Origin: Chloroflexota bacterium
Lineage (GTDB): Bacteria > Chloroflexota > UBA11872 > VXOZ01
Direction of reading: 5' to 3'
Assembly (NCBI GenBank): GCA_963663275.1
Contig: OY760183.1
Span: 2,464,001 to 2,528,000, forward strand
DNA: 64,000 nucleotides
Of this stretch, positions 16,379-26,138 are shown one piece after another. A model generated the notes under the pieces. The model made no database searches and was not told where the DNA came from. It worked only from the letters and a program-made list of their open reading frames with translations. How positions within the stretch are numbered: position 1 is the stretch's first letter; every line of letters begins with the position of its first letter. A program made the position numbers and the translations under genes.

Positions 16379-17443
16379 TCACCTGAAGTCATCCACAAGC
16401 ACGTACTCCAGCCGGTTCGTGCCCACCCGGCGGTGCAGCAAGCCTTTTTCCACCAGGACGCGCAGGTCGCGTTGGAGCGTCCGCCGTGAAACCTTGGGGA
16501 TAAGCGCCTGGCATTCCGCAATCGTAATCCGGCCGTGTTGCAGCGCGTGGCCCAGCGCGCGGGTTTGCCGCTCCGTCAAGCCGTGGCGGCGCGCCAGCGT
16601 ATCCTGCCGGATAGCCAATTCTCCCTGCTGCTTGACCTCCGCCAGTTGGGTCGCCAGGCCGTTCGCGAAGAACTCGATCCAGCCGGTCAAGTCCATCTGC
16701 GCGCGCCGCACGCCTTGGAGCGCGCCGTAGAAGGCCGTCCGGTCCCGGTCGTAGTACTCGCTCAGCGTGAAGAGGCGCTTGAAATCGTAGCCCGCCCGGT
16801 AGAGGCACAGCGTCGAAAGCAGGCGGGACGTGCGCCCGTTGCCGTCCAGGAACGGGTGAATGTGCACCAATTGGAATTGCGCAATGCCGCTCACAATGAC
16901 GGGATGCGTATCGCTCGGACGGTTCAGCCACGCCACCAGTTCCGCCATGAGCCGGGGCACGTCCGCGGTGGGCGGCGGCGTGTAGATGGTCGCGCCGGTC
17001 GCCGCGTCGATGACGTAGTTCTGCACCCGCCGGTACTCTCCCGGCGCCGCCGACCCGCCGCGCACGCCGGCCACCAACCGCCGGCGAATTTCCAGGATGA
17101 GCCGCTCGGCAATTGGCCGCAGTTCACCCGGCCGGCCGCCGTCGCTGAAATAGGCGCTCACGAAAGCGAACGCCTCGCGGTAGTTCAGCACCTCGCGGGC
17201 GTCGTCCGGGTCCGCTCCCGGCACGTCCCGCCCCGCCAACACAGCCGCCGCGTCCGCCAGCGTCAGGCGCGTCCCCTCGATGTGCGTCGTGTGGTGCGCC
17301 TCCCGCACAAACGCCGCCGCCCGCATCGCCTCCACCCACGCATCTGCAAGCGCCGCCCCCTCCAAAAACCCCCGCGCCCGCTCGATCTCAGCAAGAGCCG
17401 CGGTGATGGCGTTCGTAATGGTAAATCGCGGTTCAAAGGGCAT
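16379..17443 (-). CDS. Fic family protein with C-terminal winged HTH
   Basis: Canonical [33 protein letters not shown]. Confidence 0.95.
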
Positions 17444-17724
17444 TGTTCAACTCGCTATATACGGTAGACACGATGCTCAGTATGTGCGGGGTCATTCGAG
17501 GCCGCGAGCACACCCGCATCTTCTCGTGACAAATGAAAGAGCCTGCATTTTCAAGGTCATATCGGGGCAACACTCCACGTCCAAAGTCAGGGCTGCTGGC
17601 TCCATTTAGGCCATGGAAGTTCCCGGAGAGCGAGAAGGCAGAATTGTCCAGGCTGCAACAGGTCGACATGGGTGTCATGGGGGAGGAAGCGGAACTGTAA
17701 TTCCACCCGTACAGAGGCTTTCGG

Positions 17725-24800: not shown

Positions 24801-26138
24801 ACTGCCGCTATCCTTGCGGGCGTAGGGATTGGGCCGCATGGTGATGCCGCCGCCTTCCGCGCGAACCGGCTCCTGCTCCAGCAGCCGCTCGTAGATGGAG
24901 CCAAGCTGCTGGACGGACATGTCGCGGTAGTTGACGAATGAGCGCCCGGACGTGTTCTTATCCGCGCCGCGGGTGTGGCTGAGTTCGTAGATGATCGGCG
25001 CGACGACCGCATCCGGCAGGCGGACGTGCTGGAGCAACGGCGCGGCGGCGGGCGCAAAGAGACCGCCGTTGTAGGGCGGCAAGCCGATGGAGGGATCGCC
25101 TTGATCTATCAGTTTGAATAGGGTGGCAAGACGGTCGTAGTAGTTGGTGGCGACGCCGGAGAAGGTGTCCTTGACCGCCATGCGCGCGGCCATGTCGTCG
25201 CGCACCCGCTTGCGCAGGCCGTAATCGTCGTAACGCCTGTCGTTGACCGGCAGCAGGTTGCGGTCCTCGGCGTAGAGGATGAAGAGGAGGCGGTAGAGGA
25301 AGATGAGAGCCGCTTCGCGCGCCTGGGCCAGACCGGCGCCGGCGGCCGCGCCGCTTTGGGCCGCAAGCGCGGCGACCAAATCGGGGAAGACGCGCTGGAA
25401 AACCACCTCCGAGAGGTCCGCCGCCACGCGCTGCTCGTAACGCCGGCCCTCGGCAATGGCGTCTTCCAGAAAAGTGGTCGCGGCGCCCTCCTGCCGGATG
25501 AAGGCGGCGCGCCGGAAGAGCAGGAAGAAGGCGCGGAGGGCGTGGTCGTCACCCTCTTTCAGGAACGCCCGGGGGTCGGCCTCGTAGAAGCCGCTGGCGC
25601 GGGGGCGGGCGCGGTAGTCGTAGAGCCGCCAGACGGCGCCGTTGGTCAGGATGCCCCAGCGGATGCGTCCACCGGAGGCGCTCTCCGCCGTGGCCAGGTA
25701 ACGGAGAATCTGGCCGTGCGGCGTGCCGCGCTGCACCACGTCGGTGGGGTCGCGGTTGTCCAGCGGCAGGTCGAACCGCTTGCTCTCCTCGATTGCCAGC
25801 GCGTCTTGAAAACGCTCCTCGGAACGCTCGCGCCCCGCCGCCCGCGCTTTGTCTGCGTCATTGCCGAAGAGCAGGTGGTCGGGAATGTCCTCGTTGCTTT
25901 GGGAGCCCTGCTGCGGCAGGTAGTCGCTCCAGCCAAGCAGTTCGAGGATGGGCCGCACGACGGCTTGCTCGGTGAGCGATTCGTTCGGCGCGGTGGAGCG
26001 GCCGGCCGCGGCAAAGATTTTGTGAAGAGATTGCTTGAAGGCGGCGAACGTCTGCACGCGCTGCACGGAGTCCCGCCAGGCGTCGGTGGCCGTGATGCCC
26101 TCGGTGAGGAAGTATTGGGTGAAGAGTTGACCGTTCAT
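21900..26138 (-). CDS. Type IIG (Eco57I-like) fused restriction endonuclease / amino-methyltransferase
   Basis: N-terminal PD...EESK nuclease motif, GILTNG, GSFYTP, DPAMGSGHFL, GNPPW, C-terminal target-recognition region. Confidence 0.92.
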   Translation of the reverse strand: MNGQLFTQYFLTEGITATDAWRDSVQRVQTFAAFKQSLHKIFAAAGRSTAPNESLTEQAVVRPILELLGWSDYLPQQGSQSNEDIPDHLLFGNDADKARAAGRERSEERFQDALAIEESKRFDLPLDNRDPTDVVQRGTPHGQILRYLATAESASGGRIRWGILTNGAVWRLYDYRARPRASGFYEADPRAFLKEGDDHALRAFFLLFRRAAFIRQEGAATTFLEDAIAEGRRYEQRVAADLSEVVFQRVFPDLVAALAAQSGAAAGAGLAQAREAALIFLYRLLFILYAEDRNLLPVNDRRYDDYGLRKRVRDDMAARMAVKDTFSGVATNYYDRLATLFKLIDQGDPSIGLPPYNGGLFAPAAAPLLQHVRLPDAVVAPIIYELSHTRGADKNTSGRSFVNYRDMSVQQLGSIYERLLEQEPVRAEGGGITMRPNPYARKDSGSFYTPQELVDLIVEKTLEPLLEERLQAFEERAAQLKSDRRPQAERRKALEALDPAVAALDLKILDPAMGSGHFLVTAVDFLADHIADLVEFAPAVPGWLAEPYESPLVARIAAMRQEILERARASEWTLDAAQLTDQAIIRRMVLKRCIYGVDKNPLAVELAKVALWLHSFTVGAPLSFLDHHLRCGDSLLGLRVSEAIGEMNRLGGLGAQSAIAGAESAAAGMSRIEALSDADVAEVRESAALFQGVEETTAGLRGLLDTLCGLRWLTAGLRKKDRTVFESPLFDTLGQRPNDAYTLLAHGGPPPSPSGENRSDQASSPVRKSRAHLAPSPGGEGRGEGESAPSGSAGLEPASASAPEFTTLWRRARAIADRETFLHWEAAFPGVWRGWQDAQPTGGFDAVIGNPPWDRIKLQEVEWFATRAPELARAPTAAARRKAIGELRAQGDPLAAAFDRAKARADGLGKLVRASGHYPLLGGGDVNLYALFVERATRLVKPDGLVGLLTPSGIYADKTAARFFKSVSTKGRVAGLYDFENRRHSVDLPPFFPDVDSRFKFCALIVGGVERRFAETACAFFLHDTKTIEDDADRCFPLAPADFARVNPNTGTAPVFRSRRDADITRAVYANHPVLVDRADGNETKTWPVKYHNMFHMTNDSHLFRTAAQLDEEGFYPVQGNRWKRGEELYLPLYQGRMIWHFDHRNNSVRLNPESTHNPYLSEEVSESQHADPGFLPQAQYWVPSREVTRTIPDSLAYALGFRDITNPTNERTMVASVVPRTGLGNTLPILLAADQVDSVGDTPRDSASPFGATEIACLLANLCSFCLDFVARKKAQGTHMNWYIVEQLPVIAPAAYDRKFGRTTARDLVRHHVLRLTYTAHDLAPFARDLGHAGPPFIWNAEERRHLRARLDALYFILYGITRTDAAYILDTFPIVQRQDQSTHNTYRTKNLILAYMNALQAGDTTTIVDL
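23745..23890. repeat. REP cluster (family C + family A) inserted in frame within the RM gene
   Basis: CGCAGGTTCCAAACCTGCGCTACCGG (23745) and CCCTCACCCCGGCCCTCTCCCCCAGGAGAGGG (23785) encode PSPGGEGRGEG...GSAGLEPAS. Confidence 0.85.

Follow-up and report, generated by a model that had tools for sequence, protein, structure and literature searches.

The window, by which we mean the entire 64-kb stretch of DNA that was analyzed, contains a variable island flanked by housekeeping genes, with lpd on one side and a transglutaminase-like gene on the other. Table 1 presents its genes and features. The gene order and identities given by the initial annotation (fic, vapBC, HNH, membrane gene, HEPN and RM) are borne out by open reading frames, Pfam and PADLOC. 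G+C content falls to 0.43-0.54 across 18500-22000, versus 0.60-0.70 in the surroundings. The region is best explained as a variable island beside tRNA-Leu(TAG), lacking a recombinase and built between the SoFic and type IIG RM genes.

Table 1 Features of the variable island, in window coordinates
Feature	Position	Strand	Description and support
tRNA-Leu(TAG), left boundary of variable island	15982..16066	+	Rfam, ARAGORN
fic / SoFic-type defense gene, left anchor	16379..17443	-	354 aa; 5' end towards variable region; Pfam and PADLOC
vapBC-like cassette	17701..18511	-	PIN toxin 17725-18168 and ParD/RHH-type antitoxin 18165-18506; Pfam
Displaced fic 5' end (relic)	18531..18607	-	blastn, nhmmer, translation
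HNH endonuclease gene, central cargo	18757..19473	+ (opposite strand)	238 aa; Pfam
RM 3' relic 1, older	19675..19779	-	Shuffles, genome windows, profile
Unknown protein gene, cargo of second unit	19785..20405	-	206 aa; one C-terminal hydrophobic helix
RM 3' relic 2, younger	20683..20832	-	blastn, shuffles, nhmmer
AbiU2-type HEPN gene, cargo adjoining intact RM	20845..21531	-	228 aa; Pfam
Type IIG RM gene, right anchor	21900..26138	-	1412 aa; Pfam and PADLOC

Domain profile matches were obtained for the anchor and cargo families (SoFic, type IIG RM, AbiU2 and PIN/RHH toxin-antitoxin), whose functions are thereby predicted. The fic gene matches Pfam Fic (6.3e-18) and Fic_N (7.1e-8) as well as PADLOC SoFic (1.1e-65), and scores 66 bits against the NCBIfam SoFic equivalog, below its 550-bit cut-off. 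The RM gene matches the Pfam Eco57I methylase (1.3e-18) and N6_Mtase families, together with PADLOC DrmMI / REase_MTase_IIG (4.6e-82 and 3.3e-69). For the cargo, the vapBC cassette is recognized by Pfam PIN (6.7e-8) and a ParD-type antitoxin family (1.8e-6), and the gene adjoining RM by HEPN_AbiU2 (9.7e-22). The HNH gene has a Pfam HNH match (3e-12) and weak PADLOC PtuB matches; tblastn and tblastx against the other loci examined returned nothing, such that among those loci it occurs in this genome only. The 206-aa protein has no match in Pfam, NCBIfam or PADLOC and falls into unnamed clusters only in Atlas. Its hydropathy exceeds 1.6 in windows starting at residues 165-181, and relatives at 40-42% are encoded in genomes G061 and G088, where they are not adjacent to an RM gene.

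The initial annotation described the array as integrase-free, and indeed no recombinase gene occurs among the 58 ORFs scanned in the window, nor does an IntI-type tyrosine recombinase lie beside the array. In the whole genome, the tyrosine recombinase profile (PF00589) has two matches, at 2624599 (~135 kb away from the array) and 2858160 (~368 kb away), and the serine recombinase profile (PF00239) has none. An Rfam search over 13000-29000 at E <= 1 returned the tRNA only (55.3 bits, E 8.5e-10). ARAGORN also calls tRNA-Leu(TAG), a boundary feature that the initial annotation had passed over.

Relics of the fic and RM genes

The fic 5' relic aligns to the start of the fic gene (18532-18607 versus 17381-17455) with 82.9% identity (blastn E 3e-15), and a profile of nine genus fic 5' ends, with the window left out, recovers it at 18531-18596 (nhmmer E 1.5e-11). 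It comprises approximately the first 22-25 codons and 12 nt upstream, and its translation follows the fic N-terminus before diverging and reaching a stop. The initial annotation had drawn this remnant at 18525-18646. Its core stands, and the extension toward 18646 reduces to 13 matching nt with an unchanged offset (score 21, reached by 10 of 1000 shuffles); sequence up to ~18640 is possibly that of the old fic promoter. The vapBC cassette shares ~90% nucleotide identity and the same ends with its counterparts in G013, G002 and G015, where the flanking fic gene reaches only ~80-82%. Its vapB-side end is constant in three contexts (fic codon ~28, fic codon ~50 and a tRNA copy), a constancy more suggestive of a defined cassette end than of random illegitimate joints.

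On the opposite side, an alignability profile reveals a conserved RM 3' block of ~450-490 nt (~21900-22390) behind a variable segment. Relic 2, first marked at 20691-20824, is a genuine copy of this block: 20728-20832 matches 21937-22039 with 82.9% identity (blastn E 1.8e-24), the alignment score of 120 far exceeds the shuffle maximum of 30 (0 of 500 shuffles as high), and a profile of 86 RM 3' blocks recovers it at 20683-20823 (nhmmer E 9e-21). Approximately the last 47 RM codons are retained, including the stop codon. The reading frame and stop are intact over the last 33 codons, and a 2-nt indel upstream of these disrupts the frame.

Relic 1 was initially confined to 19680-19720, a stretch that is weak when considered alone: it scores 29 against relic 2 (shuffle maximum 28), does not exceed shuffles when aligned to the RM end (255 of 500) and has a profile E of 2. 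The adjacent stretch 19709-19779 matches RM 22093-22163 with a score of 35, which none of 1000 shuffles or 998 random genome windows attained, and the RM 3' profile finds 19719-19779 at E 3.3e-4. That is to say, relic 1 is real, with an extent of ~19675-19779 and an internal loss of ~156 nt that leaves RM residues ~1324-1350 followed by the last ~12 codons and the stop. The more distal remnant is not simply the shorter one, as had been claimed, and is instead the more decayed (72% identity with an internal deletion, versus 82% for relic 2), a difference that would fit the stacking order.

All three relics are oriented as their parent gene, and the same holds for 23 of 23 same-genus anchor pieces at E <= 1e-3, in agreement with the initial annotation. 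Besides its parent gene, no relic has a further copy in the 3.53-Mb genome. As a background control, 74 low-copy local direct-repeat pairs were counted genome-wide; local repeats by themselves are therefore not rare. Relic 1 adjoins the stop codon of the 206-aa membrane gene, and the distance from cargo stop codon to relic is 3-13 nt in both window cases.

Related loci in the genus and in other phyla

The locus is present in 12 of the 17 same-genus genomes examined, ranging down to a bare state in G006, where 1.1 kb separates RM from fic. The fic gene is syntenic across these loci, and fic 5' and tRNA-Leu are conserved within the genus. The initial annotation anticipated that cargo would vary among relatives while gene-end remnants recur, and this is the pattern observed: nearly every locus has different cargo, and between the cargo genes there are recurrent copies of fic 5', RM 3' and also tRNA-Leu, 10 of the 12 loci having extra or partial ones. 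Among 104 cargo ORFs of relatives, one encodes an IS transposase and none an integrase. The cargo of relatives is not exclusively defense-related, as it includes an MMPL transporter and a two-component system.

Comparison with single relatives reveals how units and neighbors are arranged. In G005, an AbiU2 homologue (73% aa identity) directly follows RM within a contiguous 2.9-kb homology to the window genome (G000). This stretch takes in the variable (recognition-type) segment of RM, as an example of a unit that includes that adjacent segment. At ~79-83% identity to this single relative, the AbiU2 unit has no known recent donor, and no donor of the membrane gene or HNH was found in the loci searched. 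The G005 relic keeps its old neighbor: it is collinear with FRG-TPR, as is the intact RM gene in G015, G002 and G007. Within the same class, DUF2971 follows an intact RM gene in G020 and G040 and a relic in G056.

Relatives of the RM gene number 559 or more and are spread over many phyla. Among the 80 best loci of other phyla, most have a 3' block that can be aligned as nucleotide sequence, and 12 carry a partial 3' block on the RM strand, 0.35-5.1 kb downstream of RM. When all distinct intact RM ends followed by 3 kb or more of sequence are counted, 15 of 83 have such a block, including three ends with two or more, and the nucleotide profile detects no partial block upstream or on the other strand at intact RM loci. 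Relic breakpoints fall at varied places within the last 71-465 nt of the RM gene, and the longest relics equal the conserved block in length. Relic and RM end share 80-83% identity in the window; across 13 relics the range is 72-95%.

Three units occupy the first position in some loci and the second in others. A Gp49/HTH unit is first after intact RM in L099 and L059 and second, behind a relic, in L064; an MNT/HEPN unit is first in L103 and second in L079; and a small element is first in L100 and second in L090. In these pairs, identity climbs from 72-83% in the RM body to 82-88% in the 3' block and 89-93% in the cargo, which indicates that block and cargo are swapped separately from the RM body. 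Comparison of filled with empty sites (L079/L091, L090/L100 and L061/L058+L070) reveals relics still joined to their old downstream neighbor. The proposal of the initial annotation that a fresh anchor end arrives with cargo and pushes the old end inward is directly borne out in relatives by these unit pairs.

Probable displacement at gene ends and competing explanations

We consider it probable that the array was built by sequential displacement at conserved gene-end blocks, most likely via homology-facilitated illegitimate recombination (HFIR). The displacement of anchor-end-plus-cargo units, taken alone, is highly likely, and HFIR as the molecular route stands at about even chances. It is suggested by the AbiU2/relic 2 junction, the single junction that could be checked, where a modest microhomology of 6-8 nt (GAGGAT-type) links the donor-like G005 sequence to the RM end.

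Under such a mechanism, the SoFic and type IIG RM genes would serve as anchors, each turning a conserved end block toward the variable region (the 5' end in fic, the last ~450 nt in RM). Incoming foreign DNA, presumably taken up by transformation, would bring a homologous end block and the gene adjoining that block. Integration would involve two steps, a homologous crossover within or upstream of the block and an illegitimate joint at few-base microhomology inside the recipient's own copy, leaving an intact hybrid gene, the new cargo and a truncated old end still attached to older cargo. Repeated rounds would stack units, to give the order RM, AbiU2, relic 2, membrane gene and relic 1 on one side and fic, vapBC and fic 5' relic on the other. 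The array would thus grow from two anchors toward each other, with the central HNH gene as its presumed oldest content. ComEC and DprA are present in the genome, as they are in 10 and 11 of 14 control genomes, respectively, and are permissive only for transformation.

An unlikely alternative is that circular intermediates integrated in the Campbell manner, or that insertion occurred with long target duplication: a circle carrying one block and its cargo would recombine once with the resident block, duplicate it around the cargo and might be released again when the repeats recombine. Three features suit this model, namely the anchor-end direct repeats around cargo, the lack of a mobility gene and the constant vapBC cassette end. 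[quoted passage not shown] In addition, the cis intact end is the nearest relative of the relic in four of nine testable cases, including window relic 2 and, most strikingly, L108 (91% to the cis end versus 79.5% elsewhere); in-place duplication or a circle would account for these four cases equally well. However, the relic is nearer to another genome's RM end in the other five cases, the start points of relics vary from locus to locus, and a given cargo can have a distal relic in one genome and lack it in another (AbiU2 in G000 versus G005; DUF2971 differs likewise between G040 and G020). The repeats are also 72-95% identical, in contrast to the near-identical ones in the published tables (PMC2853133). 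Re-excision would have a poor substrate, as alignments read by eye give a longest exact run of ~19 nt between copies in the window, and a relic-relic joint is absent from the contigs, although that is a weak point. The initial suggestion that remnants double as excision handles gains no support.

It is very unlikely that whole [RM + cargo] modules once stood in tandem and that later deletions left only RM 3' ends, with the fic pieces formed likewise. Deletion relics do exist: all that G001 and G016 retain of RM at the ancestral site is its 3' end, with a junction common to both, G026 carries an in-frame fusion of RM residues 1-149 and 1324-1410, and isolated N-terminal pieces occur in G037, G045 and G053. 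Nevertheless, two full tandem RM genes were seen at 0 of 95 distinct intact ends (an incidental count outside any dedicated search), and every partial block that the nucleotide profile detects at intact RM loci is a downstream 3' piece, with no upstream 5' piece. The close spacing of cargo stop and relic, found twice, would further call for two independent deletions ending right after a gene.

We regard as likewise very unlikely a decayed tandem accretion of small integrase-mobilized islands at tRNA-Leu, with the integrase lost or acting in trans and the fic and RM pieces as passengers. A tRNA-Leu(TAG) gene does adjoin the island, vapBC or fic lies between tRNA-Leu copies, either whole or 3'-partial (35-85 nt), in G013, G002, G015 and G005, and tRNA genes are classical integration targets (PMC2853133). 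Yet the window array contains no second tRNA-Leu fragment, and an integrase is missing from the window, from all 12 genus loci and from the surroundings of the arrays in other phyla. Recombinase matches are also scarce in the genome. RM 3' relics occur in other phyla with no tRNA gene near the array in the six other-family loci scanned, and the variable breakpoints also speak against site-specific accretion. Finally, chance similarity or assembly artefact can be dismissed with near certainty: all genomes are metagenome-assembled, a 21-nt poly-C tract inside the array breaks short-read contigs and the genome holds its 74 repeat pairs, but the relics outperform shuffles (the control named in the initial annotation), genome windows and independent profiles, their divergence from the intact copy sets them apart from repeats that were collapsed or duplicated in assembly, independent contigs from run X1 (possibly the same sample) show no differences across relic 2 and its two junctions (20530-21146) or from the fic 5' end through vapBC as far as 18542, and the pattern of anchor-end relics with cargo recurs in more than 20 genomes.

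Sequential displacement at conserved gene ends offers a concrete and testable account of how a defense island may be built and reshuffled without any mobile-element gene, in lineages (uncultured Chloroflexota and others) with very few recombinases. Evolution of this type, familiar from polymorphic toxin loci, would thereby extend to a restriction enzyme gene found across many phyla. Relics could then be read as layer marks that give the relative order of acquisition and the limits of single cargo units, and the unannotated genes they delimit, including the 206-aa membrane-anchored protein and unnamed ORFs in other phyla, become candidate defense genes. A bolder and rather improbable extension is that this type IIG family, which is widely transferred, offers in its conserved 3' block a homology-based docking platform across phyla. 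Units of block plus a small toxin-antitoxin or abortive-infection gene would circulate among unrelated bacteria of a common habitat and stack newest first, in effect as an integron without integrase, and each acquisition might re-program enzyme specificity where the unit includes the variable segment. If so, the genes between RM end and relic would represent a rich, ordered source of unknown defense genes.

Comparison with known systems

The displacement process itself has already been described for Rhs, CDI and T6SS loci, of which the orphan modules of CdiA and Rhs are comparable displaced modules, and the initial annotation overrated its novelty. Sequential displacement of effector-immunity modules, with HFIR proposed, is described for the Vibrio cholerae T6SS (Kirchberger et al. 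2017, PMC5361080). As portrayed there, a conserved upstream anchor is retained, the old 3' end and its partner gene move downstream, and arrays form by repetition with no integrase; the displaced part is the variable toxin end and the kept cargo an immunity gene (PMC5361080). In contrast, the displaced part here is the conserved RM end or fic start, the cargo consists of unrelated stand-alone defense or toxin-antitoxin genes, and the window array appears to grow from two anchors toward each other. C-terminal displacement in Rhs, which leaves orphan 'tips' (Jackson et al. 2009, PMC2935791), is similar in that core and tip are decoupled, acquired ends displace old ones, and dissociated ends lie co-oriented downstream. 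The Rhs account invokes circular intermediates and variable toxin-encoding tips, whereas at the present locus it is the conserved end that is repeated, and what is new is the gene after it.

Insertion of RM genes with long target duplication was reportedly described by Nobusato et al. in 2000. The cases compiled by Furuta et al. (2010, PMC2853133), mostly from transformable species, share with the present loci direct repeats of more than 30 bp around the insert, a one-copy empty site in a relative and the lack of a mobility gene. Those cases differ in that RM is the insert and the repeats are near-identical (44/46 and 417/423; PMC2853133), whereas here RM is both target and anchor, the repeats vary in length and share 72-95% identity, and inserts are serially stacked.

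The term minimal mobile element, from Neisseria, is mentioned in PMC1538595. Like such elements, tRNA-linked islands and integrase-less cis-mobilizable elements, the present locus is a defense-rich variable region with conserved flanks and an adjoining tRNA gene, in which exchange presumably proceeds by flank recombination. Core defense hotspots, which are defense-rich variable regions between conserved genes, share this likeness. None of these concepts involves the serial retention of displaced gene ends, and the combination of an integrase with a tRNA 3' repeat at the far border that marks tRNA-targeting islands is absent from the window, where the array holds no att-type tRNA repeat.

The comparison with integrons is an analogy only, and one that Kirchberger et al. 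draw themselves for the T6SS modules (PMC5361080). The present loci lack IntI, no attC-like element was noticed in an inspection that involved no dedicated attC model, and the borders are variable, homology-based pieces of coding genes, as opposed to site-specific ones. What the two would have in common is a fixed platform alongside which cassettes pile up, mostly co-oriented and with the newest nearest to it.

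Layout of the array and its gene-end relics

The array lies between two anchors that both face it, the 5' end of a SoFic-type fic gene and the 3' end of a type IIG restriction-modification (RM) gene, and it contains displaced, truncated copies of these same gene ends, which we call relics. G+C falls from about 0.65 to 0.43-0.54 over 18500-22000. Gene functions are given as family names alone, and every genome used is metagenome-assembled.

Features of the array and its flanks, in window coordinates
Feature	Coordinates	Strand	Remarks
Tandem intergenic repeat stretches	15535-15842; 16171-16326; 26487-26841
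tRNA-Leu(TAG)	15982-16066		immediately past fic, followed by lpd; overlooked by the initial annotation
SoFic-type fic gene	16379-17443	minus	PADLOC 1.1e-65
PIN toxin	17725-18168	minus
RHH antitoxin	18165-18506	minus
fic 5' relic	18531-18607	minus
HNH gene	18757-19473	plus
RM 3' relic 1	~19675-19779	minus
206-aa protein	19785-20405	minus	no known family; one C-terminal hydrophobic helix
Spacer between relic 2 and 206-aa gene			285 nt
RM 3' relic 2	20683-20832	minus
AbiU2-type HEPN gene	20845-21531	minus
Spacer between RM and AbiU2			368 nt; contains the poly-C run
Poly-C run	21742-21762		21 nt; poly-G on the coding strand
Type IIG RM gene	21900-26138	minus	1412 aa; Pfam Eco57I + N6_Mtase; PADLOC DrmMI 4.6e-82, REase_MTase_IIG 3.3e-69
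Transglutaminase-like gene			flank on the RM side

The fic 5' relic aligns with its parent at a blastn E of 3e-15 and RM relic 2 at 1.8e-24; profiles built without the window sequence recover them at E of 1.5e-11 and 9e-21, respectively, and the score of relic 2 was matched by none of 500 shuffles. The stretch that the initial annotation had assigned to relic 1 is not significant alone, but an RM relic at that place is confirmed through the adjoining stretch, where 19709-19779 matches the RM gene farther upstream (score 35; 0/1000 shuffles, 0/998 random genome windows; profile E 3.3e-4). Because of this upstream match, relic 1 is read as an RM end that started near residue 1324 and has since lost ~156 nt internally. 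Every relic keeps the orientation of its parent gene, and no relic copies occur elsewhere in the window's genome. A control count over that whole genome (G000) gave 74 low-copy local direct-repeat pairs. Repeats by themselves are unremarkable; what is striking in the array is that each of its own pairs includes a truncated gene end amid cargo genes.

Further low-copy local direct-repeat clusters on its contig C1 (285817-290921, 1121942-1123780 and 786001-804000) may be tandem paralogues or additional relic arrays. A fic-like match at 18678-18704 (E 0.04) is non-collinear and was regarded as chance, and the relics of the window, whose frame is broken, are unlikely to be free-standing small genes. 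The tandem intergenic repeats belong to 52-nt and 38-nt families with hundreds to about 1000 blast matches genome-wide, and the RM ORF contains, in frame and in its first variable segment, 35 nt of the 52-nt family (23745-23779). The poly-C run of the RM-AbiU2 spacer has no counterpart in the homologous spacer of a related genome, G005, and short-read contigs end there; the tract could vary in length or reflect a sequencing problem. Scanning of 16000-22300 returned no promoter-like and one terminator-like site, below the shuffled sequences and so uninformative on read-through.

Variable cargo within a common frame

The RM protein was matched in 42 of 61 related genomes. Within the genus, the locus was compared in 12 of 17 genomes, the remaining five being fragmented there. 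All 12 share the frame of lpd and tRNA-Leu on one side and the transglutaminase-like gene on the other, between which contents differ almost everywhere. Inspection of these loci reveals extra or partial copies of the fic 5' end, the RM 3' end or tRNA-Leu in 10 of the 12, and all 23 such pieces at E <= 1e-3 stand in parental orientation, which bears out the earlier proposal that cargo varies among relatives while gene-end pieces recur. One IS transposase was found among their 104 cargo ORFs. In one locus RM and fic lie 1.1 kb apart without a relic (G006); others carry a TGT-like gene and a UvrD helicase without fic (G004), an MMPL gene with full fic on one side and a fic 5' copy of 365-435 nt on the other (G007, G003), an AAA/DUF4435 gene (G013), a set including Vsr (G011), or RM present only as 3' relics (G001, G016).

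The most telling genus locus is that of G005. There, a 227-nt RM relic has stayed collinear with an FRG-TPR gene, the gene that adjoins intact RM in G015, G002 and G007, and about 5.9 kb containing MMPL, a fic 5' copy, a tRNA-Leu copy, an unknown ORF and AbiU2 separate this relic from the complete RM gene. MMPL and the 435-nt fic 5' copy are 94.6% identical between G005 (locus L021, 7523-10637) and G007 (L038, 8238-11352), against about 80-92% for neighbouring genes, which suggests that the two species exchanged this block recently.

The vapBC cassette of the window is shared with G015, G013 and G002 at about 90% identity, versus about 81% for fic. In four species (window 17701-18511; L033, L034, L036) its ends are identical and its flanks differ, being fic codon ~28, fic codon ~50 or a tRNA-Leu copy. 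The constant vapB-side end may mark a defined border of the cassette or have been kept by selection for the antitoxin promoter.

Of the fic 5' copies, several form open ORFs of 148-169 aa that include a Fic_N domain (L036 9242-9751; L038 10921-11367; L035 8024-8497). At L026 in G026 (7594-8286), all that is left of RM is an open reading frame of 236 codons in which residues 1-149 are fused to residues 1324-1410. The FRG-domain/TPR gene adjoins an RM 3' end or relic in five genus genomes and lies near an RM relic at one Latescibacterota locus (L021, L024, L034, L036, L038, L099 in all), and may be a partner that recurs with this RM family.

RM gene ends across phyla

Relatives of the RM gene comprise at least 559 stretches of 58-72% identity, under record titles that name Chloroflexota, Dehalococcoidia, Latescibacterota, Rhodothermales, Nitrospirales, Terriglobia, Gammaproteobacteria and others. 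Among the best 80 of these at least 559 loci, 12 have a same-strand partial 3' block 0.35-5.1 kb downstream of the intact gene. A wider set of 83 distinct intact RM ends with at least 3 kb of downstream sequence, de-duplicated by sequence and including the window and two loci chosen for their relics, contains 15 with a partial block, three of them with two or more; no partial 3' block was found upstream of the intact RM gene or on the opposite strand. Small cargo separates gene and relic: toxin-antitoxin pairs (Gp49/HTH, HepT/MNT and MNT/HEPN), genes for a coiled-coil protein and a ThiF-family member, and unnamed ORFs. One of the cases, L097, is an IS insertion and falls outside this pattern.

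The same cargo occupies first and later positions at different loci. In L099 and L059 the Gp49/HTH pair lies behind the intact RM end; in L064 it lies behind a 73-nt relic, which another 1.2 kb separates from RM. Likewise, L103 has an MNT/HEPN pair behind the intact end and L079 has it behind the first relic, and a small element takes these two positions in L100 and L090, respectively. DUF2971 is found behind the intact end in G020 (without a relic) and G040 (with a relic beyond it), and behind a relic in G056. Identity in these pairs rises from the RM body (72-83%) through the 3' block (82-88%) to the cargo (89-93%). DNA downstream of a relic also has its match directly behind intact RM in relatives (L079/L091, L090/L100, and L061/L058 with L070).

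Nucleotide alignability along the RM gene reveals two variable segments (residues ~750-800 and ~1150-1250); the terminal block, about 450-490 nt long, is conserved. Relics measure 71-465 nt, none exceeding this block, and begin at scattered points. A single common breakpoint, as from a site-specific origin, was rejected: 14 aligned relics start anywhere from residue ~1307 to ~1379, in loose clusters only. Between G000 and G005, one 2.9-kb homologous stretch (79%) spans the second variable segment, the block, the spacer and AbiU2; alignment with the four other genus members compared is lost in the RM variable segment. Since the two genomes share the variable segment through AbiU2 as one stretch, a recognition-type segment may have arrived in the same unit as AbiU2.

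Proposed routes of displacement and known systems

The data fit sequential displacement, for which we infer the following molecular route, of the type called homology-facilitated illegitimate recombination (HFIR). A homologous crossover would occur within or upstream of the conserved block and a second, illegitimate joint inside the recipient's copy of it, such that the recipient's own gene end would persist beyond the new cargo. At the AbiU2/relic 2 junction, the sole one inspectable, G005 matches the window through AbiU2 and 27 nt and then diverges; past that point the window enters relic 2 over 6-8 nt also found in the RM end.

[quoted passage not shown] It is favored by the vapB-side end of vapBC, constant in three contexts, and by four of nine testable relics, including relic 2 of the window, whose closest RM end is the intact copy in cis; for the other five it belongs to another genome. 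Neither relic-relic joints nor circles were seen in assembled contigs of X1 (holder) and X2 (empty), which cannot show rare variants, so that this result weighs on neither side. Contig joints from 16246-16313 to 23741-23783 are spurious ones between members of a REP-like repeat family. The tRNA copies in relatives hint at decayed integrase-driven accretion at tRNA-Leu, but no integrase was found anywhere among the cargo ORFs of the genus loci, and the relics of other-family loci, where scanning found no tRNA gene, go unexplained. The description of the array as integrase-free stands: recombinase and transposase families matched none of the 58 window ORFs scanned, and the whole genome holds no serine recombinase match and two tyrosine recombinase matches, about 135 kb and 368 kb off. 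ComEC and DprA are present, which is permissive only, and Ku is absent.

Under sequential displacement, we infer the order of events in the window. From RM - HNH - fic, a unit of RM end and membrane gene would have entered and left relic 1; next, an RM end, perhaps with its variable segment, would have brought AbiU2 and left relic 2, an order that agrees with the greater decay of relic 1. On the other side, vapBC with a fic start would have entered, leaving behind the fic relic together with the sequence formerly upstream of it. Among the relatives compared, neither HNH nor a close membrane-gene homologue lies beside an RM gene. The 206-aa membrane protein has 40-42% relatives in G061 and G088, neither near an RM gene, and the Atlas yields only unnamed clusters for it, with no donor context found.

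A literature search, with subscription journals and supplements outside its reach, found no paper describing such arrays and no relevant joining of illegitimate recombination with defence islands; a study of toxin-antitoxin erosion (PMC13617665) yielded nothing on how insertion occurs. Processes of this kind are already known. The same route is proposed for V. cholerae T6SS arrays (PMC5361080) and circle integration for Rhs tips (PMC2935791), and insertion with long target duplication is described (PMC2853133). The novelty lies in the location and the components: the anchors are the conserved end of an RM gene and the start of fic, the cargo consists of stand-alone defence and toxin-antitoxin genes, growth is two-sided, and the pattern recurs across phyla.
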